A stretch of DNA of 64,000 bases, taken from assembly GCA_964557415.1 (NCBI GenBank), contig CAZLBB010000001.1, forward strand, positions 3,373 to 67,372, written 5' to 3'. The notes under the pieces were generated by a model, which was not told the origin of the DNA, did not search any database, and saw nothing but the letters and a program-made list of their open reading frames with translations. Shown here in pieces: positions 4,158-61,916 of the stretch (its first letter is position 1; every line of letters begins with the position of its first letter). The position numbers and the translations under genes are program-made. This stretch comes from an uncultured Rhodospirillaceae bacterium (lineage in GTDB: Bacteria > Pseudomonadota > Alphaproteobacteria > JAEULC01).

Positions 4158-4294
4158 CGACCTCTGGAACTTGAGGCAAGCATAAGCCGGCGGGCGGCCG
4201 CACATGCGAGCATGCACGACCAGGCAGCCATAGCAGAGTCTGAACCAAGTGAAAACTGTTGACAATTCACAACTAGGCCGGCCTGATAGGCCTG

Positions 4295-5053: not shown

Positions 5054-5093
5054 CAGGCGCAGGCAAGACGGACCAAGCAAGGAGGAGACGACC

Positions 5094-6089: not shown

Positions 6090-6092
6090 CTA

Positions 6093-6590
6093 ATGTCCGG
6101 ATTGTCCGGACGTCCCGGCGAGGGCTCGCCTTCGCCGGGAACGGTCGACCGTCTCGTCGCCCTCGCAGCGCTGGGGTTCTGCGCGCTCGTCTACGGCCTG
6201 ACCTACACGTTCGACAGCGTGCCCGAGGCGCTGATGAGCGGGCTGGGCGCCGAGCTGTTTCCCCGCCTCGTCCTCATCGTCATGGCGATCCTGTCGCTTT
6301 TGATCGCGGTAGGCGTCGGCGCGCCACCGATCGGCGCGCTGCCGCGGCTGCCGGCGCGCGTCTGGGCGACCGGCGCGGTGCTGTTCGCCTTCGTCGGCGG
6401 GGTCCAGCTCATCGGCATGTTCCCGTCCTCCTTCCTGCTGCTGGTCGGGCTCGGCTGGATGTGGGGCGAGCGCCGGCTGCTCCCGCTGGTGCTCAGCGCC
6501 GCCGGCCTGTGTGCCGCGATCTACCTTCTGTTCGTCCGCTTCGTGGGGGTAAGCTTCCCGCGCAGCATGCTCGGCACGCTGTGGTCTTGA
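6093..6590 (+). CDS. tctB: Tripartite tricarboxylate transporter small permease (TctB-like)
   Basis: 165-aa, 4-TM hydrophobic protein starting 3 nt after the tctC stop and ending 13 nt before tctA. Confidence 0.7.
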   Translation: MSGLSGRPGEGSPSPGTVDRLVALAALGFCALVYGLTYTFDSVPEALMSGLGAELFPRLVLIVMAILSLLIAVGVGAPPIGALPRLPARVWATGAVLFAFVGGVQLIGMFPSSFLLLVGLGWMWGERRLLPLVLSAAGLCAAIYLLFVRFVGVSFPRSMLGTLWS

Positions 6591-6603
6591 GAAGTCCTCG
6601 CTG

Positions 6604-27783: not shown

Positions 27784-28905
27784 TCAGCCGCCCCAGACCT
27801 CGCGCGCCGTCTCGACCACGAGCCTGAGCTTGGCGATTTCCTCGTCGAGCGTGATGCGGTTGCCTTCGACCGTGCTGGAGAAGCCGCATTGCGGGCTGAG
27901 CGCGAGCTGCTCGAGCGGCACGTAGCGCGCCGCCTCGTCGATGCGGCGCTTCAGCAGGTCCTTGCTCTCGAGCGCGCCGTGCTTGGTCGTGACCAGGCCC
28001 AGCACCACGATCCTGCCCTTGGGCACGAAGCGCAGCGGCTCGAAGCTGCCGGAGCGCGCGTCGTCATATTCCAGGAAATACCCGTCGACGCCGATCTCGT
28101 TGAACAGGATGTCCGCCACCGGCTCGTAGCCGCCTTCGGCGACCCAGGCGCTCCGGAAGTTGCCGCGGCACAGATGCATGGTGACTTTCATGTCCGCGGG
28201 CCGGCCGGCGATCACCGCGTTGATCAGCTTGCCGTAGGTGCGCGGCAGAGTCGCCGGATCCTCGCCAATGCCCGTGCGGACCTGTTCGCGCAGCTTCGGG
28301 TCGCAGAGATAGGCGAGGTTCACCTCGTCGAGCTGCAGGTACTTGCAGCCCGCGTCGGCGAGCGCGCGCACCTCCGCGCGGTAGACGCGCGCCAAATCGG
28401 TGTAGAACGACTCCATGTCGGGATAGGCATCACGGCTGATCGCCTTCCGGCCGCCGCGGAAGTGCATCATGCTGGGCGACGGGATGGTCTGCTTGGCCGT
28501 CTTTCCGGTCGCAGCCCTCACGAAGCGGAAATGGTCGACGAAGATCGGCCGGCCGCGGCCGAGCTTGCCGTCGACGCGCAGGCCGGGCGGCTCCAGCTCG
28601 ATGTCGCCTTCGTGCGTGTGGAACTTCACTTTCACGCGCGGCGGGATCACCGTGACGTTGTCGAACTTCTCGAGGAAGTCGAGATGCCACCAGGTGCGGC
28701 GGAACTCGCCGTCGGTGACGGAGTCGAGGCCGATGTCCTCCTGCAACCTGACAACCTCGCGGATCGCCGCGTCCTCGACCTCTGCCAGCGCCTCGGCCGT
28801 GATCTCGCCGCGCTTGCGCCGCTCGCGCGCGTCCAGCAGCTTTGGCGGGCGCAACAGGCTGCCGACATGATCGGCGCGGAACGGCGGCTCGGTGCGCTGG
28901 TCCAT
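27784..28905 (-). CDS. Cobalamin-independent methionine-synthase (MetE C-terminal/UROD-fold)-like methyltransferase
   Basis: 373 aa with MetE-like motifs (HVGSLLRP, IGLDSVTDGEF, HLCRGN, ALSPQCGFS). Confidence 0.8.
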   Translation of the reverse strand: MDQRTEPPFRADHVGSLLRPPKLLDARERRKRGEITAEALAEVEDAAIREVVRLQEDIGLDSVTDGEFRRTWWHLDFLEKFDNVTVIPPRVKVKFHTHEGDIELEPPGLRVDGKLGRGRPIFVDHFRFVRAATGKTAKQTIPSPSMMHFRGGRKAISRDAYPDMESFYTDLARVYRAEVRALADAGCKYLQLDEVNLAYLCDPKLREQVRTGIGEDPATLPRTYGKLINAVIAGRPADMKVTMHLCRGNFRSAWVAEGGYEPVADILFNEIGVDGYFLEYDDARSGSFEPLRFVPKGRIVVLGLVTTKHGALESKDLLKRRIDEAARYVPLEQLALSPQCGFSSTVEGNRITLDEEIAKLRLVVETAREVWGG

Positions 28906-28990
28906 GGTTTCCTCCCGATCGTTGGCGCGATTCTAGTCGGTACCCGCGTCCAAGCCCCACCCGTTGCTCGTCCGGAAATCGGACCGTCAG

Positions 28991-29012
28991 ATTGCATATT
29001 GTATAAAATCGA
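28991..29012. promoter_or_regulatory. AT-rich 22-bp operator-like motif GATTGcATATTGTATAAAATCG (copy 1)
   Basis: Sits in the divergent promoter between the MetE-like gene (minus) and the DapA-family gene (plus). A 16-mer is identical, and the 22-mer has one mismatch, to the reverse complement of 41666..41687. Confidence 0.55.
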
Positions 29013-29060
29013 CAATCTTGCTAATAATGCGTCCAGTCAGCCGTCCCAAGGGGGTGAAAC

Positions 29061-30223: not shown

Positions 30224-32224
30224 ATGCCCCTCACCCTCACCGTCACCGCCCGCGCCGCCTTCGCCGACGGCCAGGGCTTCGGCGATAGCGGCGCTTACGA
30301 GTACCTGACCGGGCGCGCGGAATACGCGCTCGACCCGAAGGCGCCCGACCTGCAGGCGGTGACCGACATCGCCTTCGCGCCGGTGGGCGCGGACGGCAAG
30401 CTGCGCTTCGCCGCCGATTTCGCGCTGCTGAAGCCGATCGACATGGCGCGCGGCAACCGCCGGGTGTTCTTCGACTATGGCAACCGCGGCAACAAGCGCT
30501 GCCTGCAGTTCTTCAACGACGCGATCGGCTCGAACGCGCCGAGCGCGCCGGAGCATGCCGGCAACGGCTTCCTGATGCGGCGCGGCTACACCGTGGCATG
30601 GCTCGCCTGGCAGGGCGACCTGCAGCCGGGCGAAGGCCGCGTGCTGATCGACCTGCCCGTGGCGACCGACCAGGGCAAGACGATCACCGGCCCGGTGCGC
30701 GTCGAGTACATCGTCAGCGAGCCGAACGTCTTCTCCCTGCCCCTGAGCGGCCAGGCGGCGGCGCGCTCCTATCCCACGGTCTCGCGCGACACGGCCAAGG
30801 CGCAGCTCACGCGGCGGCGCTACGCCGACAGCAAGCGCGAGCCGATCCCGGCCGATGCCTGGTCCTTCGCCCGGCTGGAGCACGGCACGACCGTCGACGG
30901 CGGCGGGCGCGAGCGCGCCGTCATCCCCGTGGACGACTACATCTACCTCGAGAAGGGCTTCGAGCCGGGCTGGATCTACGAGCTGGTCTACACCGCGCGC
31001 GACCCGATCATCCTCGGGCTCGGCCACGTGGCCGTGCGCGACTTCGTCAGCTTCCTGAAGCACGGCGACAGCGGCAATCCGCTCGGGAGAGGGATCGAGA
31101 AGGCCTATGCCTGGGGCCGTTCGCAGACCGGGCGCTGCATCCGCGACTTCGTCTACCTGGGATTCAACGCCGATGCCGCCGGCCGACGCGTATTCGACGG
31201 CGTGATGCCCCATGTCGCCGGCGGCGGCCGCATGTGGATGAACCACCGCTTCGCCGCGATCATGCCGCTGCCCGGCCAGGAATACGAGAACCACTTCACG
31301 CCGGTCGACCGCTTCCCCTTCTCCTACGCGCGCACGACCGACCACCTGACCGGCCGCACCGACGCCATCCTGAAGCGGCCCGAGACCGATCCGCTGGTGA
31401 TCCACACCGACACGGCGACCGAGTACTGGCTGCGGCGCGGCTCGCTGGTCGTGACCGACACGCAAGGCAGCGACATCCCCCTGCCCGACACGGTGCGCGT
31501 CTACATGTGGGCGAGCTCGCAGCACTATGCCGACCCGCAGATGAAGGAGCCGCCGCGCGGCATCTGCCTCTATCCGGCCAACGTGGTCGTCACCTCGATG
31601 CTGTTCCGCGCCGCGCTCGACAACCTCGACCGCTGGGCCACGACCGGCAAGGCGCCGCCGCCGGGCCGCCATCCGCGCCGGGCGGACGGCACGCTGGTCG
31701 CGGCCGAGGAATGGCGCAAGCAGTTCCCCGCCATCCCGGGCGCCGTGATCCCGCGCGGCCCCAGCAAGCTCGACCTGCTGGATTTCGGCCCCGACATCGA
31801 CCGTGGCCTGATCGCGAAGGAGCCGCCCTTGGTGATCGCCGGCAAGCGCTATGCCGTGCTGGTGCCGGCGGTCGACCCGGACGGCAACGACGTCGCCGGC
31901 GTCCGCGCGCCGATGGTGCAGGCACCGCTTGCCACCTATGCCGGCTGGAACATGCGCGCGCCGGGCCTGGGATTCGGCGCCATGGGGCCGATCGTCGGCA
32001 GCACGATCGCTTTTGCCGACACCCCGGAGGAGCGCGAGCGCACCGGCGACCCGCGCCGCTCGGTGTTCGAACGCTACGGCAGCAAGGACGTCTATGTGCG
32101 CGCAATCACCGAGGCCGCCCGCCGCCTCGTCGCCGACGGGCTGATGCTGGAGGAGGACATCGAGCGCGCCGCCGCCCGCGCGGCCCACTGGGGCCGCCCG
32201 CGCCACAACGTGAAGCTGGACTGA
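30224..32224 (+). CDS. Uncharacterized 666-aa protein (no signal peptide, no recognisable catalytic motif)
   Basis: Long ORF with coding-like composition. The 5' end (ATGCCCCTCACCCTCACC) resembles the terminal repeat of element A. Confidence 0.6.
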   Translation: MPLTLTVTARAAFADGQGFGDSGAYEYLTGRAEYALDPKAPDLQAVTDIAFAPVGADGKLRFAADFALLKPIDMARGNRRVFFDYGNRGNKRCLQFFNDAIGSNAPSAPEHAGNGFLMRRGYTVAWLAWQGDLQPGEGRVLIDLPVATDQGKTITGPVRVEYIVSEPNVFSLPLSGQAAARSYPTVSRDTAKAQLTRRRYADSKREPIPADAWSFARLEHGTTVDGGGRERAVIPVDDYIYLEKGFEPGWIYELVYTARDPIILGLGHVAVRDFVSFLKHGDSGNPLGRGIEKAYAWGRSQTGRCIRDFVYLGFNADAAGRRVFDGVMPHVAGGGRMWMNHRFAAIMPLPGQEYENHFTPVDRFPFSYARTTDHLTGRTDAILKRPETDPLVIHTDTATEYWLRRGSLVVTDTQGSDIPLPDTVRVYMWASSQHYADPQMKEPPRGICLYPANVVVTSMLFRAALDNLDRWATTGKAPPPGRHPRRADGTLVAAEEWRKQFPAIPGAVIPRGPSKLDLLDFGPDIDRGLIAKEPPLVIAGKRYAVLVPAVDPDGNDVAGVRAPMVQAPLATYAGWNMRAPGLGFGAMGPIVGSTIAFADTPEERERTGDPRRSVFERYGSKDVYVRAITEAARRLVADGLMLEEDIERAAARAAHWGRPRHNVKLD

Positions 32225-32227
32225 CCC

Positions 32228-33823
32228 CTACGCCACGCCGGCGACATACCCGTCGCGCTGCGGGTCGGCGCCGCCTTCGAGCATGCCGTCGAACATCGTG
32301 ATGCCGTGCGGCGCCGCGAAGGGAAAGGTCGCGGGCCAGCGCTTGACCTTGTAGCCCATCGCCTGAAGCTCGCGCTCGACGCGGCGCGGGATGCGGTTGC
32401 CGATGTCGATCGTGTTGGTGGTGGCCGAGAAGCGCGGCGCCTCGACGGCTTCCTGCATCGTCATGCCCCAGTCGAACACGTTGAGGATGACCTGCAGGAT
32501 GGCGACGCCGATCCAGGCGCCGCCGGGCGACGACACGGTCGCCACCGGCTTGCCGCCCTCGAACACGATGGTCGGGGTCAGCGACGAGAAGCGGCGCTTG
32601 CCCGGCGCGATCGACCCGGCGCGGCCGGGCCGCGGGTCGTACCAGTTCATCGCGCCGTTGAGCATGAAGCCGGTGCCGGGCACGATCACGCCGGAGGGCG
32701 TGCCGAGCGTATGCGTCAGCGAGACGACCATCCCGTCGGCATCGACGCAGCTGACCGTCGTGGTGCCCTTGGCATCGCCGGTCATGCGCGCGAAGTCGAC
32801 CTTGTGGCCGCGCTTGATGCCGGCGGCGCATTGCGCGGCGTAGCCGTCGGACAACAGGTGGTCGAGCGGCGCCGGCTGGAAGTCCGGGTCGCCGATGTGA
32901 TTCTCCTTGTCGCGCCCGGCGATCTTCATCGCCTCGGCGACGACACGGATGTAATCGGCGCTGTTGTGGCCGAGCGATACGAGGTCGAAATGCTCGAGGG
33001 TGCGCAGCATCTCGGCCACCACGATGCCGCCGGCGGGCGGCGGCGGCAGGGCGAAGACGCGGCCGCGATAGCCGACCTTGAGCGGCTTTTCGGTGCGGGG
33101 CTTGAAGTTCCTCAGGTCGTCGAGAGTCAGCGGCCCGCCGTTTGCTTCCATGTCCGCGACGATGCGCCGGGCGATCGCGCCGGTGTAGAAGCTCTCCGCC
33201 CCGTCGCGGGCGATGCCGCGGAGCGTCTCCGCCAGTTCCTGGTTGCGCACCGCGTCGCCGACCCGCTTGGGCGTGCCGTCCGGCCGCAGATAGAGCCGAG
33301 CGCCGTCCGGCGTGAAGGCGAGCTTCGCGCGATAAGGCAGGCGCCCGAGCCAAGCCTCGTCGAGCGAGAACATGGTGTAGACATGCGGGCGCACGATCCA
33401 GCCTTCCTCGGCCGCGGCGATAGCGGCGTCGAAGAGCTGGCCCCAGGGCTTGCGGCCGAACCGGGCATGGGCGAGGCCGAACACCCGCAGGATTCCCGGC
33501 GTGGTGACCGCGGTGCGTCCAAGCTCGTTGACGCCGCCCTTGAGCACGAAGCCGTAGCCGTCGGCGCATTCGCGCTCGAACAGATGCGCCCACATGTCGG
33601 GCCTCGAGCTGCCGGGACAGGTGGACAGCCCGTCGAGCACGAGATTGGCGCCCGTCCTGGGATCGTAGATCTGCAGGCTGCCGAGCCCGCCGATGCCGCT
33701 CATCAGCGGATCGACCACGCCCTGCGTGAACGCCGCAGCCAGCGCCGCGTCCAGCGCGTTGCCGCCGGCGCCGAGCATCTCCGATCCCGCCTCGACCGCT
33801 TCCGGCTGCGGCGCCGTGATCAT
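32228..33823 (-). CDS. Gamma-glutamyltransferase-family protein (Ntn hydrolase), no signal peptide
   Basis: ORF trimmed to MITAPQPEAVEAGSEML. GGT motifs (GGNALDAALA, the catalytic Thr region GTTTVSCVDADG, PGTGFMLN). Confidence 0.85.
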   Translation of the reverse strand: MITAPQPEAVEAGSEMLGAGGNALDAALAAAFTQGVVDPLMSGIGGLGSLQIYDPRTGANLVLDGLSTCPGSSRPDMWAHLFERECADGYGFVLKGGVNELGRTAVTTPGILRVFGLAHARFGRKPWGQLFDAAIAAAEEGWIVRPHVYTMFSLDEAWLGRLPYRAKLAFTPDGARLYLRPDGTPKRVGDAVRNQELAETLRGIARDGAESFYTGAIARRIVADMEANGGPLTLDDLRNFKPRTEKPLKVGYRGRVFALPPPPAGGIVVAEMLRTLEHFDLVSLGHNSADYIRVVAEAMKIAGRDKENHIGDPDFQPAPLDHLLSDGYAAQCAAGIKRGHKVDFARMTGDAKGTTTVSCVDADGMVVSLTHTLGTPSGVIVPGTGFMLNGAMNWYDPRPGRAGSIAPGKRRFSSLTPTIVFEGGKPVATVSSPGGAWIGVAILQVILNVFDWGMTMQEAVEAPRFSATTNTIDIGNRIPRRVERELQAMGYKVKRWPATFPFAAPHGITMFDGMLEGGADPQRDGYVAGVA

Positions 33824-33869
33824 CGAGCGGGCGGCCGGCAGCCGCCGCGCGGGCCTGGGCATGGGTCGA

Positions 33870-34079
33870 CTAGCGGCGGCTCGGGCTCGGCAGGACCAGC
33901 TTCGCCACCATATGGATGATGGCGCCCAGCACGAACCAGGTCGCCAGGAACGCGCCGGTCTCGAGCAGGAAGCTCTTGAACTTGTAGAACAGCTCCGCGA
34001 TCACCAGCGCGGCGATGAAGCTGACTGGCTCGCTGAGCCAGACCTGGCGATCCTTGAGCGACTTCAGCAGCGTGAACAT
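33870..34079 (-). CDS. Small 69-aa two-TM membrane protein
   Basis: MFTLLKSLKDRQVWLSEPVSFIAALVIAELFYKFKSFLLETGAFLATWFVLGAIIHMVAKLVLPSPSRR, with a strong AAAGGAGGA SD 6 nt upstream. Lies 23 nt downstream of the BNR giant gene. It is in the ORF track only as the tail of the antisense ORF 33870..36368. Confidence 0.5.
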   Translation of the reverse strand: MFTLLKSLKDRQVWLSEPVSFIAALVIAELFYKFKSFLLETGAFLATWFVLGAIIHMVAKLVLPSPSRR

Positions 34080-34102: not shown

Positions 34103-37100
34103 TCAGCCGACCGCCGCCAAGCCCGCCTGGTCCATGGCAGCGTTGAGGGCGGGCAGCGACTTCTCGCGAACGCGCTGCCAGCGCGCCGTCAGGGCGTCGA
34201 GCTCGGCGGTCAGCACGGCATAGACGTCGCGCGCCTGCTGCGCGGGGGCGAAGTCGCCGCTGTCGACCGTGTCGAACAGGGCGTTGAGCTTCTCGTGCAG
34301 GCCGCTGCCGTAGAGCTGCGCGCCGGGATAGTGCACGTCGATCAAGGCGCCCCGGATCGATCGCAGCTCGGCGGCGAGCTTGGCCGCCCCGTCGCGCACG
34401 GCGGCGCGCTCGCCGGCTCGGCGCCCGACGAGCGCGGTCTGCGCCAGCAGCGCGTCGATGTCGTTGATCATCGTGTTGACCGCGGTGAGCCTGCCGATGA
34501 TCTCGCCGAGGAAGATGAACTGCGCCTTGAGGTCGGCGAGCTTCGTCCTGACGCGCGGGTCGCGCTCGATCTCGAAGGACTGCGTCTGGCTCGCGCCGTC
34601 GACCACCAAGCGCACCGCGTAGCGGCCCGGCACGACCATGGCGCCGTCGGCGCGGTTCCACGGCTCCAGGTCCTTCGCCAGCACATTGGGTACGCCAATG
34701 AGACGCCGGTTCCACAGGAAGCGGTTGACGCCCGGCTCGGCGGGCACATCGGCGTAGTGCCTCAGCTCCCTGCCCTTCTCGTCGAGGAAGGTCAGGCTCG
34801 CGCCGCCCTTCGGCTTTTCGGGCAGGTAGTACTGCACGACCACGCCGTAGGGCGGGTTCTTGCCGGAATCGAGCAGCAGGTTGTCGTAGCTGCCGTCCGG
34901 CTGCTTCAGCGGCAGCACGCGGATCACGTTGGTGCCGGTGCGCGGATAGCTGATCATTCCCGGCCAGGCCGGACCGCGCGACGCGGTCGCCTGCGCCGCG
35001 ACCCCGCCGAAGCCGCCGATCACGCGCATGCGCACGCGCGAGCGCGGCTGGAACAGGTGCGCCGTCGGCTTGCCGCTCTTCTTTTCCTTGATCAGGTCGT
35101 AGAGCTGGTGGAACGGCGTCAGGTCGTCGAGGATCCAGATCGACCTTCCGTGCGTCGCCACCACCATCTCGACGCCCTTGATCACGAGGTCGTAGATCGG
35201 CGCCACCGGCAGGTTGCCGCCCAGGCGGTGCCACTGGCCGCCGTCGTCGAACGAGACGTAGATGCCGGTCTCGGTGCCGCAATAGAGCAGGCCGCGGCGG
35301 CTGGGGTCCTCGCGGATCGTGCGCGTGAATTCGCCGTCGGGAATGCCGGAGACGATCTTCGTCCAGCTCTTGCCGCCGTCCGCGGTCTTGTAGAGATAGG
35401 GCCTGGTGTCGTCGAGCTTGTAGCGCGTCGCGGCGATGTAGCAGGCGTCCTGGTGATGCGGCGAGGCCTCGACGATGCTGATCAACGCCCATTCGGGCAG
35501 CGCGTTGGCCCTGGCGCCCTCGACCTTCGCGTTCCTGCCGTCGGGCGTGATGTCGTCCCAGCGCTTGCCGCCGTCCCTGGAGCGGTGCACGAGCCCGTCG
35601 TCCGTGCCGCACCATAGCCAGTTGCGCCGCTGCGGCGATTCGGCCAGCGCGAAGATCGTGCAATAGACCTCGGCGCCGGTGTTGTCGCGCGTGATCGGCC
35701 CGCCCGAGGGGCCGAGCCGCGACCTGTCGTTGCGCGTCAGGTCGGGGCTCACCACCTCCCAGCACGCCCCGTTGTCGCGCGAGCGATGCAGGTGCTGCGA
35801 GCAGACCCACAGCACGTCGGGATCGTGCCGGCTGTAGTGGATCGGGAAGGTCCAGTTGAAGCGGTACTTCAGCGCGTCGGCGCCGACGCCCCAGCCGTAG
35901 AGTTCGGGCCAGACCGTGTTCTGCCAGTCCTGTCCCGTCTTGTGGTCGAACAGGTACATGACGTCGTTGGTGCAGCGCCGCCCGATCGGACCGGAGGCGA
36001 CCACCAGATCGGGGTTGTCGTGCTTGATGGCGATGTAGCCGCTCTCGCCGCCGCCCGGCTTGATCCAGTCGCGCTCGGTGATCGCCCCGATCGGCGAGGC
36101 GCTGGGGATGCTGATCGCGGTGTTGTCCTGCTGCGAGGCGTAGACGCGGTAGGGGAACCGGCTGTCGGTGGTGACGTGGTAGAGCTGCGCGGTCGGCTGG
36201 TTGTAGATCGACGACCAGGACTGGCCGCCGGTGAAACTGACACAGGCGCCACCGTCGTTGCCCTCGATCATGCGCTTCGGATTCTTCGGGTCGATCCACA
36301 GCGCATGGTCGTCGCCATGCGGCGTCGGCACCTGCAGGAAGGTCCTGCCGGCGTCGATCGACTTCCACAGACGGTAGTTCTGCACATAGACCGTGTCGGG
36401 GTCCTGCGGATCGGCGGTCACGTGCATGTAGTACCAGGGCCGCGTGCGCAGGCCGGAGAACTCGGACGCGCGCTCGAAGCTCCGCCCGCCGTCGTCGGAG
36501 CGGAACATGGCGCCGTCGTCGGCCTCGACCAGCGCCCAGACGCGGCCATAGCCGCGCCCGCCGACCGGCTCGGGCGAGACGGCGACGCCGATCTTGCCGA
36601 GCAGGCCCTTGGGCAGGCCGGACGCGCGCGAGATGTCAGTCCAGGTGTCGCCGCCGTCGGTCGAGCGCCACAGCCCGCATTCCTCGCCGCCGCTGATCAG
36701 CACGTGCGGATAGCGCTGCGCCTGCCAGATCGGCGCGTAGAGGATGTTCGGGTTGACCGGGTCGAGCGCGATGTCGTGCGAGCCGGCGCGGTCGCTCTTG
36801 TAGAGCACGTTCTCCCAGGTCCTGCCGCCGTCCTTCGAGCGGAACACGCCGCGCTGCCGGTTGCGGCCCCAGGCATGGCCCAGCGCCGCGACATAGACGA
36901 GATCCGGGTCGGCCGGATGCACGACGATGCGGCCAATATGGCGCGTGTCGTCGAGGCCGAGATGGGTCCAGGTCTTGGCCCCGTCGACCGACTTGTAGAC
37001 GCCGTCGCCGTGCGACACGTCGTTGCGGATGCAGGCCTCGCCGGTGCCGGCATAGATGACATTGGGCGCCGAGGGCGCTACGGCGATCGCGCCGACCGCC

Positions 37101-37321
37101 GCGGTACGGAAGAACCCGTCGGTCATGCAGAGCCAGGTCTGCCCGGCGTCGGTCGTCTTCCACACGCCGCCGGCACAGGCGCCGAAATAGAAGGTGGCAG
37201 GATCCGCCGGGCAGCCGGCGACGGCCACCACGCGCCCGCCGCGATGCGGGCCGATCAGACGCCAGTCCAGGCTGCTTAGGAGGCTCGCCTGAATCCCCTG
37301 TACCGCGCTCGCCAAGGTCAT
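34103..37321 (-). CDS. 1072-aa BNR/Asp-box repeat protein (sortilin/VPS10- or GH74-like double beta-propeller), no signal peptide
   Basis: More than 10 SxDxGxTW-type repeats (TDAGQTW, SVDGAKTW, SKDGGRTW, STDGGDTW, SIDAGRTF, SRDGGKRW, TADGGKSW). ORF trimmed to MTLASAVQG. Confidence 0.8.
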   Translation of the reverse strand: MTLASAVQGIQASLLSSLDWRLIGPHRGGRVVAVAGCPADPATFYFGACAGGVWKTTDAGQTWLCMTDGFFRTAAVGAIAVAPSAPNVIYAGTGEACIRNDVSHGDGVYKSVDGAKTWTHLGLDDTRHIGRIVVHPADPDLVYVAALGHAWGRNRQRGVFRSKDGGRTWENVLYKSDRAGSHDIALDPVNPNILYAPIWQAQRYPHVLISGGEECGLWRSTDGGDTWTDISRASGLPKGLLGKIGVAVSPEPVGGRGYGRVWALVEADDGAMFRSDDGGRSFERASEFSGLRTRPWYYMHVTADPQDPDTVYVQNYRLWKSIDAGRTFLQVPTPHGDDHALWIDPKNPKRMIEGNDGGACVSFTGGQSWSSIYNQPTAQLYHVTTDSRFPYRVYASQQDNTAISIPSASPIGAITERDWIKPGGGESGYIAIKHDNPDLVVASGPIGRRCTNDVMYLFDHKTGQDWQNTVWPELYGWGVGADALKYRFNWTFPIHYSRHDPDVLWVCSQHLHRSRDNGACWEVVSPDLTRNDRSRLGPSGGPITRDNTGAEVYCTIFALAESPQRRNWLWCGTDDGLVHRSRDGGKRWDDITPDGRNAKVEGARANALPEWALISIVEASPHHQDACYIAATRYKLDDTRPYLYKTADGGKSWTKIVSGIPDGEFTRTIREDPSRRGLLYCGTETGIYVSFDDGGQWHRLGGNLPVAPIYDLVIKGVEMVVATHGRSIWILDDLTPFHQLYDLIKEKKSGKPTAHLFQPRSRVRMRVIGGFGGVAAQATASRGPAWPGMISYPRTGTNVIRVLPLKQPDGSYDNLLLDSGKNPPYGVVVQYYLPEKPKGGASLTFLDEKGRELRHYADVPAEPGVNRFLWNRRLIGVPNVLAKDLEPWNRADGAMVVPGRYAVRLVVDGASQTQSFEIERDPRVRTKLADLKAQFIFLGEIIGRLTAVNTMINDIDALLAQTALVGRRAGERAAVRDGAAKLAAELRSIRGALIDVHYPGAQLYGSGLHEKLNALFDTVDSGDFAPAQQARDVYAVLTAELDALTARWQRVREKSLPALNAAMDQAGLAAVG

Positions 37322-37385
37322 TCTCTCCCCTTCACGGGCGCGCACGGGGCGCGCCGTATCGCTCCGAAATCACGGCGCCGACCGG

Positions 37386-38288
37386 TTACCGCCGATAGCG
37401 CCGCTGCACCATGAGGTTGGCGGCGGCCGTGAGCACGAGCGTCGCCGACATGAGGATGAAGGCGACGGCGCTGCCGAGCGGCCAGTTGCTCTTGATCGCG
37501 AACTGGATGTAGACGAGCGGCCCCATCATGACGAACTGCGGCCCGCCCAGCAGCACCGGCGTGGCATAGGCGTTCATCGTGAGGATGAAGCAGAAGATTC
37601 CGCCGGCGACGAAGCCGGGCAGTGCCAGCGGCAGCAGCACGCGGCGGAACATGGTCCAGGGGCCGGCGCCCAGGCTGAAGGCCGCCTCCTCGACCGCGCG
37701 GTCGATGCCCTCGATCACGCTCTGCAGCGTCAGCACGACATAGGGCAGGTTCACGGCCAGGATGCCGACGATGACGGCGGTCTCGGTGAACATGATGGTC
37801 AACGGCTCGCCGATCAACCCGAGCCACTGCAGGCTGACGTTGAGAAAGCCCTTGTTGCCGAACAGGGTCATCCATCCGGCCGCGCGCACCGCGTTGCCGA
37901 CGAACAGCGGCAGCACGACCAGCATGATCAGCAGGTGCTTGTACCGGCTCTGCGTCCGCGCGATCACGTAGGCGAGCGGAAACGCAAGGACCACGCAGAT
38001 CGCGGTGACGATCACGGCGACGCGCAGCGTGCGATAGAACGCGGCGAGGAAATACGGATCGGTAAAGAACAAGACGTACTGCTTGATCGTGAACGCGTCG
38101 ATCATCAGCACGCCGGGCTTGAAGTCGTTCAGGCTGTAGCGGAACAGGAACAGGATCGGCAGCAGCAGTCCGACCGTGACGAAGATCGTCGCCGGCCCGA
38201 TCAAGAGTCCGGCGGTCGACAGCCGCCCGCCGCGCATTTCGCGCGCGGCGAGCGACTGCAACGTGCCGGCCGTGGCGGACGCGGTCAT
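37386..38288 (-). CDS. ABC transporter permease (PotB/PotH-like)
   Basis: 300 aa, 6 TM segments and an EAA-like loop (EEAAFSLGAGPWTMFRRVLLPLALPG). Confidence 0.85.
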   Translation of the reverse strand: MTASATAGTLQSLAAREMRGGRLSTAGLLIGPATIFVTVGLLLPILFLFRYSLNDFKPGVLMIDAFTIKQYVLFFTDPYFLAAFYRTLRVAVIVTAICVVLAFPLAYVIARTQSRYKHLLIMLVVLPLFVGNAVRAAGWMTLFGNKGFLNVSLQWLGLIGEPLTIMFTETAVIVGILAVNLPYVVLTLQSVIEGIDRAVEEAAFSLGAGPWTMFRRVLLPLALPGFVAGGIFCFILTMNAYATPVLLGGPQFVMMGPLVYIQFAIKSNWPLGSAVAFILMSATLVLTAAANLMVQRRYRR

Positions 38289-38298
38289 GCCTCCGTCC

Positions 38299-38459
38299 TG
38301 TCCCCCCTCCCCTTGCGGGAGAGGGTTAGGGGAAGGGGTATGTTACCGCGAGGCACGTCGTGCCCGACGTGGAAAGAGTGTTCCCGCGCTACCGCGCGGA
38401 AACCCCTCCCCCAGTCCCCCTCCCGCCCCTTCGACAAGAGCTCAGGAGGGAGGGGGAAC
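38299..38459. repeat. Intergenic palindromic repeat element, copy B (REP/MITE-like), between the binding-protein and permease genes
   Basis: Starts gtcccccctccccttgcgggagagggttagggg, which is near-identical to the start of copy C. The right end gggagggggaac is an imperfect inverted copy. Several internal hairpins (ggcacgtcgtgcc, ccgcgctaccgcgcgg). Confidence 0.55.
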
Positions 38460-38501: not shown

Positions 38502-39587
38502 CTAGGCCTTGAACTGCTTGTCCCAGAAGTCGCGCAGGTCCGGGCCCTTCTTGGTGAGGAACTCCAGGTCCGGGTTGACCAGCAAGGCCGCCTCTTCCTC
38601 GGAGAAGCCGATGCGCTTCCTGAGTTCGGGGTCGACCTTGGCGTTGCTGACGACCGGGTTGTAGCCCATGTCGACGGCGAAGGCCTCCTGCGCCGATGGC
38701 TCGAGCGCCGAGTTGAGGAAGGCATAGGCGCCTTCCTTGTTCGGCGCGTTCTTTGGGATGGTGAAGCCCGACATGTAGGTGATGATGCCGTCCTTGGGCG
38801 CGATCGTCTGCACCGGGATGCCGGCGTTCTGCCACTGCACCGCGCGCGCCTTCCACATGATGCAGAGCCCGATCTCCTCGGTCTTGAGCCCTTGTGCCAG
38901 CGCCTCGTTGGTCGGGTAGATCCGCGGCTTCAGCTTCTTCAGCTCCAGCAGCATCTTCTTGGCGGTCTCGAAGTCACCGGTCTTGCCGCCGCCGGCCAGC
39001 GCCGCAGCCATGGTCGTGTAGTTGAACTGGATGTCGATCACGCCGACCTTGCCCTGGTGCTTCGGGTCCCACAGATCGACGATCTTGGTCGGCGGCGTCG
39101 GGATCAGCTTCGGGTTGTAGAGCACGACCTTGCCGCTGTAGATGTGCGGCGAGATGTACGAGCCCTTGTCGATGCTGAAGTTCTTCAGGATGTTCTTGGA
39201 GTTCGGCATCTTCGCCGGGTCGAGCTTCTCCAGGAGCCCGAGCTCGGTCAGCTCGCCGATGTCGGTGTCGGCGAGCGCCTGGATGTCGGACGTGCCCTTG
39301 GGCAGACGCGCCTCGGCCTGAACCTTGGTCTTGCGCTGCTGGCTGCCGAGATCGTCGTGCACCATCTCCCAGCCCTTCGGCGCCATCAGCGGGTTGGAGA
39401 TGTTCTTGGCGAGCAGCTTGGAATAGTCGCCGCCCCAGGTGCCGAGCACAACTTTCTTGCTCTGCGACCAGGCTTGGCCGGTCGGCCCGAAGATGCCGAG
39501 CGCGCTCGCGCCGGCAACGGCCGCGGCGCCGCCCTTGAGCGCCTCGCGGCGGGTGATGATGGTGGGTGTCCCCAGACGTTTGGTCAT
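38502..39587 (-). CDS. ABC transporter periplasmic binding protein (PotD/PotF-like, family 1)
   Basis: ORF trimmed to MTKRLGTPTIITRREALKGGAAAVAGASALG, a Tat signal. PotD-like fold sequence. Confidence 0.85.
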   Translation of the reverse strand: MTKRLGTPTIITRREALKGGAAAVAGASALGIFGPTGQAWSQSKKVVLGTWGGDYSKLLAKNISNPLMAPKGWEMVHDDLGSQQRKTKVQAEARLPKGTSDIQALADTDIGELTELGLLEKLDPAKMPNSKNILKNFSIDKGSYISPHIYSGKVVLYNPKLIPTPPTKIVDLWDPKHQGKVGVIDIQFNYTTMAAALAGGGKTGDFETAKKMLLELKKLKPRIYPTNEALAQGLKTEEIGLCIMWKARAVQWQNAGIPVQTIAPKDGIITYMSGFTIPKNAPNKEGAYAFLNSALEPSAQEAFAVDMGYNPVVSNAKVDPELRKRIGFSEEEAALLVNPDLEFLTKKGPDLRDFWDKQFKA

Positions 39588-39633
39588 CGTGTCTCTCCTC
39601 CTGTTTGAGCCGTTGTCGAACGCATCCGGCGCG

Positions 39634-40704
39634 TCAGGCCTGCGGCCTGCCGGCCTCCTCCGCAAACACGACGCCGGCCTCGGACGGCCAGCCGACCTCG
39701 ACCTTGTCGCCCTCGCTCGGCAGTCTCCCGTCGGCGCGGTTCGGCTGGCTGACCACGACGCGATCGGCCGCCGAGACGCGCACGTGCACGTCGATGTTGG
39801 CGCCGAGATAGGAGACGAACTCCACCGTACCCGGCAGGCGGTTGGGCAGGCCCTGCGCCGCGGGACCGAGCGCCAGCCGCTCGGGCCGGAGCGCGATCAC
39901 CGCCGGGCCGGCCTGGCCGCCGGCGCAGGCGATCTTGAGGCCGCCCGCCGTCTCGAACTGGCCAGGGCCGACCACCTTGCCCGGCAGGATGTTGCTGCGG
40001 CCGACGAAGCCGGCGACGAAGCGGTCGGCCGGCCGCTCGTAGAGGTCGCGCTGCGAGCCGACCTGACGCACCTCGCCCTCGGACATGACCACCAGCCGGT
40101 CGGCCATGATCAGCGCCTCTTCCTGGTCGTGCGTCACCATCACCGTGGTGATGCCGAGCTGGCGCTGCAGCTCGCGGATCTCCACGCGCACCGTCTCGCG
40201 CAGCTTGGCGTCGAGGTTCGACAGCGGCTCGTCCAGCAGCAGCACGTCGGGCCGGATGGCGAGCGCGCGCGCCAGCGCCACGCGCTGCTGCTGCCCACCC
40301 GAGAGCTGGCGCGGCAGGCGCTCGGCGAAGCCGTCGAGCCGGACCATGCGCAGCGCCTCGGCGACGCGCGGCTTGGTCTCGGCCGGCGCGATCTTGCGCA
40401 TCTCGAGGCCGAAGGCGACGTTCTCCGCCACGGTCAGGTGCGGGAACAAGGCATAGCTCTGGAATACCATCCCGGCGTTGCGCTTCCACGGCGGCAGCGC
40501 CGTGACCTCGCGCCCGCCCAGGCGTACGCGCCCGCCGGTTGGCGCGACGAATCCGGCGATCATGCGCAAGGTCGTGGTCTTGCCGCAGCCGCTCGGCCCC
40601 AGCAGCACGACGAACTCGCCGTCGGCGATGTCGAGCGTGACGTCGCTGACCGCGACCGTCGGGCCGAAATGCTTGGAAAGATGCTGCAGTTCGAGCCGCG
40701 CCAT
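39634..40704 (-). CDS. ABC transporter ATP-binding protein (PotA-like, with C-terminal TOBE-like domain)
   Basis: Walker A GPSGCGKTT, LSGGQQQRVALARAL and Walker B LLLDEPLSNLD. Confidence 0.9.
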   Translation of the reverse strand: MARLELQHLSKHFGPTVAVSDVTLDIADGEFVVLLGPSGCGKTTTLRMIAGFVAPTGGRVRLGGREVTALPPWKRNAGMVFQSYALFPHLTVAENVAFGLEMRKIAPAETKPRVAEALRMVRLDGFAERLPRQLSGGQQQRVALARALAIRPDVLLLDEPLSNLDAKLRETVRVEIRELQRQLGITTVMVTHDQEEALIMADRLVVMSEGEVRQVGSQRDLYERPADRFVAGFVGRSNILPGKVVGPGQFETAGGLKIACAGGQAGPAVIALRPERLALGPAAQGLPNRLPGTVEFVSYLGANIDVHVRVSAADRVVVSQPNRADGRLPSEGDKVEVGWPSEAGVVFAEEAGRPQA

Positions 40705-40708
40705 TTCC

Positions 40709-41536
40709 CTACACCACGCGCGAGAGCTTGACGAAACGGTCTGTAATGATCATCGCGCCCGCGATCAGCCCGATCTGCAGCACGGAGACCGCGGCGATGG
40801 TCGGGTCGATCTTCCATTCCAGGTACTGCAGGATCGCGATCGGCAGCGTGGTGCGGCCGGCGCCGACCAAAAACAGCGTCATCTCGAGATTGCCGAACGA
40901 GACGACGAAGCCGAACAGCGCCGCCGCGACGATGCCCGGGCGGATGGTCGGCAGCGTCACGCGGAAGAAGGTCCGAACCGGCGTGGCCCCGAGATTCTGC
41001 GCCGCCTCCTCGATGCTGCGGTCGAAGCCGGCGAGGCTCGCCGTCACCAGGCGCACGCACCAGGGAATGACCAGCAGGATGTGGCCGGCGACAAGGCCGG
41101 CGATCGAGCCGAGGATCGGCAGTTCGGTCCAGATCGTGACTTCGACGTGGAACACGTAGATCGAGGTGCCGAGCACGATGCCCGGCACGACCAGCGGCAT
41201 CAGCAGCAGGCTGTTGAGCGCTTCGCGGCCGGGAAAGCGGAAGCGCGACACGCACAGCGCCGCCGGCACGCCGATCGACAGGCCCACGACCATGGCCGTC
41301 ACCGCGACCTGCAGGCTGAGCAGGAAGCCGTCGAAGAACTTCGGGTTGTTCCAGATCGAGGCGAACCAGCGCAGGCTGTAGCCGTCGGGCGGAAACGACG
41401 GGATCTCCTGGCGGAAGAAGGCAAGCCAGGTGACGAAGAACAGCGGCAGCAGGATGAAACCCAGCACGGCGCCGGCGGCGCCGTTGAGCGCCCAGCGCCC
41501 GAGCGTGCGGCTGTACACGGCGCCTTGCGAGGTCAT
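40709..41536 (-). CDS. ABC transporter permease (PotC/PotI-like)
   Basis: ORF 40709..41731 trimmed to MTSQGAVYSRTLGRWALNGAAGAVLGFILLPL. EAA loop EEAAQNLGATPVRTFFRVTLP. Confidence 0.85.
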   Translation of the reverse strand: MTSQGAVYSRTLGRWALNGAAGAVLGFILLPLFFVTWLAFFRQEIPSFPPDGYSLRWFASIWNNPKFFDGFLLSLQVAVTAMVVGLSIGVPAALCVSRFRFPGREALNSLLLMPLVVPGIVLGTSIYVFHVEVTIWTELPILGSIAGLVAGHILLVIPWCVRLVTASLAGFDRSIEEAAQNLGATPVRTFFRVTLPTIRPGIVAAALFGFVVSFGNLEMTLFLVGAGRTTLPIAILQYLEWKIDPTIAAVSVLQIGLIAGAMIITDRFVKLSRVV

Positions 41537-41665
41537 GCCGGGTCTCGACGGTCGCGCGCGACCGGGGCCCGTGCGCCGCCACGGCGCGCCCCGCGCTGCT
41601 GCTGCCGTTTTCCCCGATCGATCATGCGCCCCCGCGCCGAAGTTGCGACTCCATAGCAAGGCTGC

Positions 41666-41687
41666 CGATTTTATACAATATCCAATC
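41666..41687. promoter_or_regulatory. AT-rich 22-bp operator-like motif (copy 2, reverse orientation) inside the inverted repeat GCCGATT-N13-AATCGGC
   Basis: cgattttatacaatatccaatc is the reverse complement of copy 1 with one mismatch. It lies in the 230-bp divergent promoter region between the Pot-like operon start and the second GntR gene. Confidence 0.55.
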
Positions 41688-41766
41688 GGCATATTGCGGC
41701 ACGCCGTGTAGCCATGATACCAGGGCTGCAAGGCAAGCGCCCATAAGCCGCGCGTCCATACCTCTT

Positions 41767-42489
41767 ATGCAGGGCATCGCCCGCTTCCGGATCGAGGGCA
41801 TGAGCATTTCCGCCCCCAGGACCCCGAGCATGCCGTTCTCGCACCGCACGGTGGCCGCCTCGGCCGCGGACGCGATCCGGCGCAAGATCTTCGATGGCCA
41901 GCTCAAGGACGGCGAGCCGCTGCGCCAGGACCTGCTCGCCGCCGAGTTCGGCATCAGCCGCACGCCGGTACGCGAGGCGCTGGTGCAGCTCGAGGCCGAG
42001 GGCCTGGTCAAGATCGAGCCCCACAAGGGCGCCGTCGTCGCCGGCACGTCGCTGGCCAGCGTCGAGGAAACCTTCGAATTGCGCGAGGTTCTGGAGCCGA
42101 TGCTGCTCGAGCGCTCGGCGCCGCGCCTGACCGAGGACGACTTCCGCCAGATCGACGCCGTGCTGCAGGAATACTCGGACGAACTGCGCAATCACAACGT
42201 CAAGCGCTGGGGCGAGCTCAACACGCTGCTGCACGCCAAGCTCTATGCGCGCGCCGAGCGGCCGCAGATCCAGGCGATCGTCGACAAGCTGCTCAATACG
42301 TCGGACCGGTTCACCCGGCTGCAGCTGATCCTGACCCACGACCTCGAGCGCGCCGAGCGCGAGCACGACGAGATCGTCACGCTGTGCCGCAAGGGCGACT
42401 TCGCCGCCGCCGCCGCGACGCTGCGGCGCCACATCCGCGCGGTCAAGGACGCACTGGTCAAGTTCCTGGCGGAGCGGCCGGGCGCGTAG
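41767..42489 (+). CDS. GntR-family transcriptional regulator (FadR/FCD subfamily), second copy
   Basis: wHTH LRQDLLAAEFGISRTPVREAL plus an FCD domain. The start is ambiguous (41767, 41800 or 41830). Confidence 0.8.
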   Translation: MQGIARFRIEGMSISAPRTPSMPFSHRTVAASAADAIRRKIFDGQLKDGEPLRQDLLAAEFGISRTPVREALVQLEAEGLVKIEPHKGAVVAGTSLASVEETFELREVLEPMLLERSAPRLTEDDFRQIDAVLQEYSDELRNHNVKRWGELNTLLHAKLYARAERPQIQAIVDKLLNTSDRFTRLQLILTHDLERAEREHDEIVTLCRKGDFAAAAATLRRHIRAVKDALVKFLAERPGA

Positions 42490-46527: not shown

Positions 46528-47688
46528 ATGTTGCAGACGGACGCTGCGGCCGCTCGCACCTCGGTCGACTTGCGGCTCGAGGAGGTGAGCAAGAGTTTCG
46601 GCAGCGTCGCGGCGCTGCGGCCCTCGTCGCTTGCCGTCGAAGCGGGGCTCCTGGTCTCTCTGCTCGGTCCCTCCGGCTGCGGCAAGACGACCACGCTGCG
46701 GCTGATCGCCGGGTTCGAGGCGCCCGATACCGGCCGCATCGTGATCGGAGGCCAGGACGTCGGCGACCTGCCGCCGAACCGGCGGCGGCTCGGCATGGTG
46801 TTCCAGAACTACAGCCTGTTCCCGCACATGACCGTCGGCGAGAACGTCGCCTTCGGCCTGAAGATCGCGGGCATCGGGCGCGACGAGGCGCGCCGCCGCG
46901 TGCGCTCGATCCTGGAGCTGGTGCGGCTGCCCGGTTTCGAGGACCGCTTCGCGCACCAGCTCTCGGGCGGCCAGCAGCAGCGCGTTGCGCTCGCCCGCTC
47001 TCTCATCACCAATCCTTCGGTCCTGCTGCTCGACGAGCCGCTCGGCGCGCTCGACAAGAACCTGCGCGAGAGCATGCAGTTCGAGCTGCGCCGCATCCAG
47101 CAGAGCCTCGGCACCACGACGATCCTGGTGACGCACGACCAGGAGGAAGCTCTGACCATGAGCGATCGCGTCGCCGTCATGAACCACGGGTCGATCCTGC
47201 AATACGGCACGCCGACCGAGGTATACGAGCATCCGCGTACGCGTTTCGTTTCCGAGTTTCTCGGCACCTCCAACCTGTTCCGCGGACACGCGGCGCGCAG
47301 CGCCAACGGCACCGGGCTCCGCCTCGAGGTGGCGCGTGACGGCGCGCCGCCCATCGTGCTGCGGGTCGCGCGCAACGGCGCGGAGCCGAAGCCGGGTGAG
47401 CAAGCGCTGGTCGCGATCCGGCCGGAGAAGATGCGCCTCACCCGCACGGCGCCGGCGGCGCTGGGACGCGAGCTCGACGGCGTGACGGCCAAGGTGATCG
47501 ACTCCGTGTTCCGCGGTACCTACCACGCCTATCAGGTCGGGCTTTCCGGCCGCGGCGACCCTCTGTTCGTCTACCAGCAGGCGATCGACGCCGACGGGCA
47601 GGGCGTGTTCCCGCCCGGCAGCGACGTTCACGTCACCTGGTCGCCGGACAACGTCGTCGCGCTGGCCGACGACGGGGACGCGGCATGA
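46528..47688 (+). CDS. ABC transporter ATP-binding protein (PotA-like)
   Basis: Walker A GPSGCGKTT and LSGGQQQRVALARSL. The stop overlaps the hyuA start (ATGA). Confidence 0.9.
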   Translation: MLQTDAAAARTSVDLRLEEVSKSFGSVAALRPSSLAVEAGLLVSLLGPSGCGKTTTLRLIAGFEAPDTGRIVIGGQDVGDLPPNRRRLGMVFQNYSLFPHMTVGENVAFGLKIAGIGRDEARRRVRSILELVRLPGFEDRFAHQLSGGQQQRVALARSLITNPSVLLLDEPLGALDKNLRESMQFELRRIQQSLGTTTILVTHDQEEALTMSDRVAVMNHGSILQYGTPTEVYEHPRTRFVSEFLGTSNLFRGHAARSANGTGLRLEVARDGAPPIVLRVARNGAEPKPGEQALVAIRPEKMRLTRTAPAALGRELDGVTAKVIDSVFRGTYHAYQVGLSGRGDPLFVYQQAIDADGQGVFPPGSDVHVTWSPDNVVALADDGDAA

Positions 47689-49754: not shown

Positions 49755-49773
49755 GCGAGAAGCGGTGACAACG

Positions 49774-51792: not shown

Positions 51793-51830
51793 CAACCCGT
51801 CCCAAGGGGACGACAACAAGGGAGAGCGAC

Positions 51831-52898: not shown

Positions 52899-52956
52899 CG
52901 CGAGGGAGCGGGCGGCAAGCAGCCTCTTGCCGCCCGCGCCCTCGAAGGGTCCGAAC

Positions 52957-61730: not shown

Positions 61731-61903
61731 TGTCCCCCCTCCCCTTGCGGGAGGGGGTTTGGGGGAGAGGCAATGGCGCCAAGCGGCAACGCATTGCCGC
61801 TTGGCGCTTCAACCGAACCCTTGGCCGACACTTCGACTTTTCTTTGCGTGCCGCCGCGCGTCCCCTTCCTCCTAACCCCCTCCCGCAAGGGGAGGGGGGA
61901 TCG
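61731..61903. repeat. Intergenic palindromic repeat element, copy C (REP/MITE-like), between the binding-protein and first permease gene
   Basis: Perfect 24-25-bp terminal inverted repeats (tcccccctccccttgcgggaggggg ... ccccctcccgcaaggggagggggga). A central perfect palindrome ggcgccaagcggcaa-cgca-ttgccgcttggcgc lies between them. Confidence 0.6.
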
Positions 61904-61916
61904 GAGTAGAGTCAGC

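Follow-up and report, generated by a model that had tools for sequence, protein, structure and literature searches.

The window, meaning the whole stretch of 64,000 nucleotides that was analysed, has a GC content of about 68-70% and contains two copies of an AT-rich sequence, designated O1 and O2, each lying between divergent genes. Open reading frames were called with GC3 as a guide, gene families were assigned with Pfam, and comparison loci are designated by L-numbers (L001, L003 and so on). The gene calls made beside both copies in the first-pass annotation were upheld by Pfam (Meth_synt_2, DHDPS, Pot-like ABC, BNR/Sortilin, GGT and GntR+FCD). The same annotation had described two distant loci. 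The gene layout puts two convergent operons between the copies, so that the supposedly distant sites mark the outer limits of a single contiguous 12.6 kb cluster. The features are:

27784-28905, minus strand: MetE-like gene (Meth_synt_2, by Pfam), divergent from O1
28990..29010, plus strand: candidate operator O1, 21-mer GATTGCATATTGTATAAAATC; the same site lies 5′ of DHDPS orthologues in L003, L011 and L021
29061-29990, plus strand: DHDPS-family gene (by Pfam), the first gene after O1
30224-32224, plus strand: Abhydrolase_10 gene (by Pfam), second gene of the O1 operon; synteny in L003, L008, L011 and L021
32228..41536, minus strand: the whole O2 operon; synteny kept in L001, L008, L018, L019 and L033
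40709-41536, minus strand: permease of the Pot-like ABC importer, first in the O2 operon
39634-40704, minus strand: ATPase of the Pot-like ABC importer, second in the O2 operon
38502-39665, minus strand: PotD-like binding protein, third in the O2 operon
37386-38288, minus strand: permease, fourth in the O2 operon
34103-37345, minus strand: BNR/Sortilin-like protein of 1080 aa, fifth in the O2 operon
33870-34079, minus strand: small ORF of 69 aa, sixth in the O2 operon
32228-33862, minus strand: GGT, last in the O2 operon
41667..41687, minus strand: candidate operator O2, 21-mer GATTGGATATTGTATAAAATC as read on the minus strand; invariant except at position 6 in 10 orthologous regions
41800-42489, plus strand: HypR-like GntR/FCD regulator of the FadR subfamily (GntR+FCD, by Pfam), divergent from O2

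O1 and O2 are oriented alike with respect to the operons that they face, GATTG...AAAATC reading into the cluster. The small ORF between the BNR/sortilin-like gene and GGT encodes a hydrophobic product and has a strong AGGAGG ribosome binding site; a counterpart of 72-76 aa is called in L001, L003 and L008.

The two copies share the 22-mer GATTG[C/G]ATATTGTATAAAATCG, which is found at 28990-29011 on the plus strand (GATTGCATATTGTATAAAATCG) and at 41666-41687 on the minus strand (GATTGGATATTGTATAAAATCG). The reverse-complement copy lies exactly where it was first reported; the O1 copy is present as described, one base to the left of its annotated position of 28991-29012. Sixteen nucleotides are identical in both copies (28996-29011 and 41666-41681), and the likeness extends beyond the 22-mer to 34 nucleotides with 88% identity (28990-29023 against 41654-41687), terminating at a CTTGCTA box common to both. 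We estimate at about 2e-7 the probability that a 16-mer with 13 A/T positions would occur a second time. In 100 dinucleotide-preserving shuffles of the window no match to the repeat was obtained, even with two or three mismatches allowed, which bears out the earlier view that exact recurrence of so AT-rich a 16-mer is unlikely by chance. A search of the 64-kb window with up to six mismatches found no copies besides O1 and O2.

The 12-mer core ATTGTATAAAAT lies at 28998-29009 in O1 and at 41668-41679 in O2. Its centre of symmetry, TTGTA|TAAAA, is conserved among orthologous sites, and five of the six positions pair in the 12-mer ATTGTA|TAAAAT. Read as TTGT-AT-AAAA, the core has a complete TKGT box and an ACMA box with three of four positions; the right half-site is degenerate. 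A conserved CGATTG box lies to the left of the dyad, centred about 10.5 nucleotides from the dyad centre. In O1 the core and its flanks form a 28-bp imperfect palindrome (28990-29017, GATTG...CAATC). O2 lies within the inverted repeat GCCGATT-N13-AATCGGC, which is present at 41664-41690 as first annotated; its outer GCC/GGC palindrome is not conserved in L004, L033 or L041, and the repeat was rejected as the functional dyad. The register of the site is ambiguous, and can be read either as the 12-mer core with an extra box or as a 21-bp palindrome, ATTGGATA-N3-TATMMAAT.

Conservation was assessed in a footprint set of ten importer/GntR intergenic regions (the window, L001, L004, L033, L035 and L037-L041), which were found by protein similarity alone and whose regulators are 70-90% identical. 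Loci derived from the pattern are biased towards exact matches, and unbiased conservation was taken only from protein-derived loci; loci found by protein identity or similarity keep synteny. The 21-mer is invariant except at position 6 in all ten regions, with a mean pairwise identity of 0.98 compared with 0.26-0.56 in flanking 21-nucleotide windows. In a MAFFT alignment of the ten regions the only invariant runs of at least four nucleotides were CGATTG and ATATTGTATAAAATC. The motif also lies 5′ of DHDPS or Abhydrolase_10 orthologues in L003, L008, L011 and L021. L003 was found by protein and has the same 21-mer 5′ of DHDPS; no site within six mismatches was found upstream of its GntR/GGT pair.

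In 21 independent loci, which include members of the footprint set, the motif stands directly beside a gene orthologous to the second GntR, with regulators 47-94% identical (L001, L004, L013, L014, L019, L023, L024, L028, L030, L031, L033, L035, L037-L042, L044, L050 and L052). In the Dongiaceae locus L024 the regulator is only 47% identical and the 21-mer is unchanged, between DHDPS and GntR. L028, L030 and L042 have regulators 64-67% identical, divergent from a DHDPS orthologue 71-72% identical to that of the window, and their sites read GATTGGATATTGTATCCAAT[T/C], with CCAA as the ACMA box. The L042 site is GATTGGATATTGTATCCAATC, with near-identical sites in L028 and L030, and its dyad is perfect, ATTGGATA-N3-TATCCAAT. 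In L031 (regulator 58%) and in Duganella L050 (59%), where DHDPS and GntR form one operon, ATTGTATAAAAT is followed by ATCCAA, the mirror image of the window site. On plasmid pMaq22A_1p of Methylobacterium aquaticum (L052), where the GntR orthologue (49%) lies at about 118.9-119.6 kb, the exact 12-mer separates GntR from DHDPS (61.5%), and a further site is found 5′ of GntR. The constant association drawn from these diverged loci is thus one of the regulator clade, a DHDPS-subfamily gene and a ATTGTATA(A/C)AAT core. The Nordella homologue (L048) was rejected as a carrier of the motif, having neither a site nor a DHDPS neighbour.

Distant orthologues of the regulator always adjoin a DHDPS-family gene, either divergent or in the same operon (L028, L030, L031, L042, L049, L050 and L052). 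The other genes of these loci vary: some have a Liv-type ABC transporter, others FAD oxidoreductases or an MR/MLE enzyme. This pattern suggests that the DHDPS-family enzyme, the partner that the regulator clade keeps most widely, is the ancestral core of the regulon.

The pattern GATTTTATACAATATNNAATC was used to scan one genome per species from 185,579 species, and 21 stretches matched. Ten of these were in low-GC taxa (29-50% GC), as chance expects. The other 11 were in Alphaproteobacteria or Proteobacteria MAGs with 64-69% GC, for which we estimate that about 0.003 matches would be expected by chance. Nine of the 11 immediately precede orthologues of the permease/GntR pair, DHDPS or Abhydrolase_10; of the remaining two, the match in L025 adjoins a Liv-type ABC operon and that in L016 a phosphonate-type ABC/IMPase divergon. 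The first-pass annotation had named frequent occurrence at unrelated sites as evidence against a shared operator. Such occurrence was not found: each high-GC genome with a match has one or two near-exact copies, and no genome has more than two.

The MetE-like gene was treated separately. Its ATG is 95 bp from the centre of O1, and outside the window the gene adjoins the site only in L011, the closest relative, which is 90-95% identical. Co-control had been proposed for the MetE-like/DapA-family pair as a whole. The proposal gains support on the DHDPS side, where the motif recurs 5′ of orthologues, and has none for the MetE-like gene beyond close relatives. Because the adjacency is limited to these two loci, membership of the MetE-like gene in the regulon, as a target of O1, is possible but unproven.

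Candidate promoter elements were located next to both sites:

29011..29027, plus strand: putative promoter elements of the DHDPS operon, with a -35-like TTGTAT at 28999-29004 inside O1 and TGc-TAATAA at 29019-29027
41650..41666, minus strand: putative promoter elements of the ABC/BNR/GGT operon, with a -35-like TTGTAT at 41673-41678 inside O2 and TGc-TATGGA at 41650-41658
41694..41723, plus strand: putative GntR promoter, with TTGCGG at 41694-41699 and TGa-TACCAG at 41715-41723

The proposed spacer is 17 nucleotides in both the DHDPS and importer promoters, and the -10 boxes are of the extended type. The proposed -35 and -10 hexamers each have three of six consensus positions, and scans of both operator regions for E. 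coli-type promoters (sigma-70 consensus) and for terminators called nothing. Because the hexamers are weak and the E. coli-consensus scan was empty, these assignments are putative. A known alphaproteobacterial promoter type is CTTGAC-N17-CTATAT, which the proposed promoters resemble. Next to O2, the conserved blocks GGCATATTGC and CATGATAC contain the candidate GntR promoter elements, and the GntR promoter probably lies within them. O2 would be centred near -53 of this promoter, so that autoregulation of GntR through O2 is possible but unproven.

Two further features follow the motif at fixed distances, a TTG(C/A)TA box at +7 to +13 and a GGGGG-N4-6-ATG block at +34 to +45. In L004, L013, L014, L033 and L041 the conserved ATG is the permease start, 42-47 nucleotides past the motif. 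The DHDPS gene of the window starts with GTG 50 nucleotides past O1, with GGGGG at 29050-29054 as its ribosome binding site. Since the start codons are only 42-50 nucleotides past the motif, RNA polymerase must bind over or next to the operator. In the window the permease ATG (41536) is 131 nucleotides from O2, because a GC-rich upstream ORF of 30 codons intervenes. This ORF (41533-41625, minus strand; MIDRGKRQQQRGARRGGARAPVARDRRDPA and then a stop) starts at the conserved GGGGG-ATG box after O2, and its TGA overlaps the ATG of the first permease (ATGA at 41536). In L004 and L033 the ATG equivalent to the start of the upstream ORF is the permease start, and in L001 the extension is in frame. 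Folding of the leader (41530-41645) was no better than that of shuffled sequences (z = 0.95), and neither O1 nor O2 matched an Rfam family; an RNA element was rejected on these grounds. Also rejected were a sigma-54 promoter, CGGCAG-CCTTGC, whose GG-to-GC spacing by our reading is 9 nucleotides where the consensus needs 12, and an IHF site (WATCAA-N4-TTR), which the sequence does not fit.

The regulator encoded beside O2 scores 2.3e-17 for GntR and 3.8e-21 for FCD in Pfam (ORF 41767-42489). The longest ORF begins at 41767; the ATG at 41800, with a GAGGG ribosome binding site, fits the length of its many homologues, about 225 aa. Its DNA-binding domain is 64% identical to that of Shewanella SO2852 HypR (35/55 aa), compared with 47% for the first GntR of the window (4295-5053). 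All motif-associated regulators share a conserved recognition helix and wing (SR[TI]P[IVL]REAL...EPHKGAVV), from which the first GntR differs. No NCBIfam equivalog was assigned at cutoff, the best being phnR_burk with 105.7 bits against a cutoff of 271.5. The best plasmid-borne homologue in S. meliloti is 46% identical and adjoins a TRAP transporter; since its gene is not in the hyp cluster, it was rejected as the hyp-cluster regulator. The divergent intergenic region of this paralogue, between the TRAP transporter and GntR genes of the S. meliloti megaplasmid, contains AATGTATAAAAT (L051, 8931-8942), which hints that the core motif is common to a wider clade of HypR-like FCD regulators.

HypD is a deaminase of the DHDPS family, and hypO encodes a D-Hyp oxidase of the DAO family. 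Within the GntR family, HypR itself belongs to the FadR subfamily; it represses hydroxyproline/proline utilisation and has been the subject of experiments in Sinorhizobium meliloti, and its regulon in Proteobacteria has been reconstructed by comparative genomics (RegPrecise; PMC5343134, PMC4494728). In S. meliloti it is a repressor whose inducer is 4-hydroxy-L-proline, and the core regulon consists of hypR, hypE, hypO, hypD and hypH (Leyn et al. 2016, PMC5343134). Sites bound by the FadR subfamily take the form of AT-rich palindromes whose TKGT/ACMA boxes are separated by 3 nucleotides, or by 2 in some groups including HypR; they often lie in divergons together with the gene of the regulator, and often have a further half-site box 7-12 nucleotides from the centre (Suvorova et al. 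2015, PMC4494728). The supplementary table of that study gives GGATATTGTA-TACAATATCC as the consensus of the predicted HypR sites, among which the 12-mer ATTGTATAAAAT appears unchanged at Csal_2705-2706, HCH_03167-03168 and Shew_1685 (PMC4494728).

The window sites resemble HypR operators in several respects. Their core is one base from the HypR core ATTGTATACAAT, with ATTGTATAAAAT itself among the predicted HypR sites, and the left arm of O2, GGATATTGTA, is that of the HypR consensus. Over the 12-mer core there is one mismatch at both sites, and over 20 positions there are four mismatches in O2 and five in O1; the GT and AC pairs are 2 nucleotides apart, as in the HypR motif. The regulator has the same architecture of GntR wHTH and FCD domains, one site lies within the divergon that holds its gene, and the conserved target belongs to the DHDPS family, that of HypD. 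The differences are that the right arm of the window operator is degenerate and an extra conserved CGATTG box lies at its left, that the best S. meliloti homologue of the regulator (46%) is outside the hyp cluster, and that the gene set comprises a PotABCD-like importer, the 1080-aa BNR/sortilin-like protein, GGT and Abhydrolase_10. No gene for 4-hydroxyproline epimerase (hypE) or ketoglutarate-semialdehyde dehydrogenase (hypH) was seen near the sites, and the window ORFs scanned against Pfam had no match to proline-racemase-family or aldehyde-dehydrogenase-family models. A DAO-family oxidase gene adjoins the site only in L021. The core Hyp pathway genes (hypE, hypO, hypD and hypH) are thus represented beside the sites only by the DHDPS-family gene. 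The regulator would act in the manner of HypR, but membership of the hydroxyproline regulon fails on gene content, and it is described here as HypR-like.

Assignment of a function to the DHDPS-family enzyme was attempted and abandoned: no NCBIfam equivalog was found at cutoff, and the best-matching proteins in the PDB are listed as 'putative DHDPS' and are themselves uncharacterised. Sinorhizobium is absent from the ten most frequent organisms in the 190 plasmid records matching the protein at E<=1e-30, which hints that the window DHDPS belongs to a different subfamily. Among plasmids, near-identical DNA was limited to partial matches to ABC genes, and a literature search for the exact sequence and gene combination found nothing relevant.

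More broadly, the operators of FadR, PdhR, LldR, DgoR and UxuR are likewise AT-rich dyads with TKGT/ACMA boxes. An operator of the FadR type is typically a single site that separates the regulator gene from a divergently transcribed catabolic or transport operon, with repression relieved by a small carboxylate-type ligand, and extra half-site boxes 7-12 nucleotides from the centre are a further point of likeness (PMC4494728). The window conforms, having a cognate GntR wHTH + FCD regulator encoded nearby and sites both in the regulator divergon (O2) and 5′ of another operon (O1), with both positions conserved. It departs from the type in its imperfect ACMA box (AAAA in the window, CCAA in L028, L030 and L042), in the skew of conservation to the left arm, and in exact conservation of 21 nucleotides across many genera, which is tighter than usual. 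The site can also be read as ATTGGAT-ATTGTAT heptad repeats followed by an inverted box, similar to the direct-repeat sites of NanR, NagQ and FarR (PMC4494728). The dyad reading better explains the mirrored L031 and L050 sites and the perfect palindrome of L042, and no evidence of pure direct-repeat recognition was found among the sites compared.

O1 and O2 are best explained as operators of the HypR-like repressor encoded at 41800-42489, lying over or next to the inward-facing promoters, a reading to which we give a probability of about 0.8. The comparative data support the shared operator proposed in the first-pass annotation, which had named the second GntR or another regulator, and fit the second GntR: the motif is the sole invariant block in the importer/GntR intergenic regions, recurs 5′ of DHDPS orthologues, is rare within genomes and matches the predicted operator of HypR-type regulators, which resemble this GntR in their DNA-binding domain. 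The operator would have two parts, an imperfect palindrome of the HypR type, ATATTGTA|TAAAAT, in which the GT-N2-AC geometry of the family is kept apart from one change of C to A, and an extra half-site-like box, CGATTG, one heptad upstream; the latter would fit the 'additional box' of FadR-subfamily sites (PMC4494728). A dimer of the regulator, possibly with a further subunit on the extra box, would block both promoters, acting from O1 on the DHDPS-family and Abhydrolase_10 genes and from O2 on the Pot-like ABC importer, BNR/sortilin-like, small ORF and GGT genes. Binding of a small-molecule inducer to the FCD domain would release the repressor, as in S. meliloti HypR and other FadR-type repressors. 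From the observed sequences, their conservation, their genomic associations and their match to a published predicted motif, we infer binding by the regulator, the sign of regulation, the promoter hexamers and the inducer.

The sign of regulation could be the opposite. If the motif is a true binding site at which the adjacent regulator activates or acts dually, RNA polymerase would be recruited to weak promoters in the presence of inducer. The weak -35 and -10 hexamers and the empty consensus scan suit this arrangement, as do the fixed orientation towards the catabolic operons at both sites, appropriate to a class I or II activator, and the location of O2 near -53 of the putative GntR promoter, which we regard as a typical activator position. 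The distance from motif to start codon is nevertheless too short for a site upstream of the -35 element of the structural operons, in L031 and L050 the core has the reverse orientation with respect to the extra box, which speaks against a strict orientation requirement, and the experimentally studied HypR is a repressor (PMC5343134). We consider activation unlikely. Binding by some other protein, either the first GntR/FCD (4295-5053) or a global factor, would make the adjacency of the second GntR incidental. L003 has a site at DHDPS and none before its GntR, in L016 and L025 the fetched stretch contains the motif but no GntR gene, and many HypR-like paralogues share similar cores, the TRAP-linked paralogue of S. 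meliloti having AATGTATAAAAT. Against this stand the 21 independent loci in which the motif adjoins an orthologue of the second GntR, over a range of 47-94% regulator identity, and the lack of fit to IHF-type or sigma-54-type consensus sequences. The first GntR was itself rejected as the binder: no motif lies near it, the window has no other match within six mismatches, and its DNA-binding domain is less HypR-like (47% against 64%). A different binder is accordingly very improbable.

The repeat might instead owe nothing to a dedicated regulator, being a duplicated promoter cassette (UP element, -35 and -10) or the remnant of a small repeat or mobile element. The similarity of O1 and O2 does reach the putative -10 box, over 34 nucleotides at 88%, and both copies are oriented alike relative to their own operons. 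Promoters are not normally invariant over 20 of 21 bases when the regulators are 70-90% identical and hexamer-adjacent bases are drifting, and the site has dyad symmetry, perfect in L042, accompanies a single regulator clade, and corresponds to a regulator motif already catalogued. There is no Rfam family at either site, nor are there terminal repeats or target duplications, and a mobile or repeat element was rejected because only two copies are present in the window even at six mismatches, with one or two per genome. We regard this origin as the least credible of those considered.

We offer, as a tentative proposal with the odds clearly against it, that the HypR-like regulator and its two operators define an uncharacterised catabolic module of PotD-like importer, BNR/sortilin-like putative glycosidase, GGT, Abhydrolase_10 and a distinct DHDPS-family enzyme, which may handle a conjugate related to proline or hydroxyproline, or a gamma-glutamyl one (fragments of peptides or glycopeptides, for instance), rather than free hydroxyproline, and that the asymmetric three-box operator may reflect higher-order binding by a dimer plus an extra subunit. 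The arrangement is most likely an ordinary local regulon of a FadR-subfamily GntR regulator, in which only the regulator and the gene set are uncharacterised; the operator pair does not reveal a new regulatory principle. It ties 12.6 kb of genes with poor annotation to a HypR-like regulator as a single predicted regulon, and adds Rhodospirillales-like Alphaproteobacteria and a new gene set to the known range of the catalogued HypR-type motif. The predicted regulon offers a concrete handle on the substrate of the cluster, with testable inducers for its catabolic genes, and the same operator is found in cultured relatives, Methylobacterium aquaticum MA-22A, Duganella Leaf isolates and Paraburkholderia acidisoli.

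Other features of the window lie outside the cluster. The first GntR/FCD gene (4295-5053) is situated between a family III CoA-transferase/enoyl-CoA hydratase pair (2958-4265, minus strand) and TctCBA (4992-8085, plus strand), a tripartite tricarboxylate transporter; this locus has no HypR-type site and looks like a separate local regulon. Downstream of the second GntR, 46528-54671 encodes a hydantoinase/oxoprolinase A and B pair with another Pot-like ABC transporter, adjoining DUF1028 and polysaccharide deacetylase genes; no operator copies were found in this region. A GC-rich REP-like palindromic element (CCCCTCCCCTTGCGGGAGGGG...) occurs three times in the window, at 38296-38338, 61731-61770 and 61863-61905. 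One copy is within the ABC operon, between the permease and binding-protein genes, and the other two form an inverted pair near an Opp-like operon.
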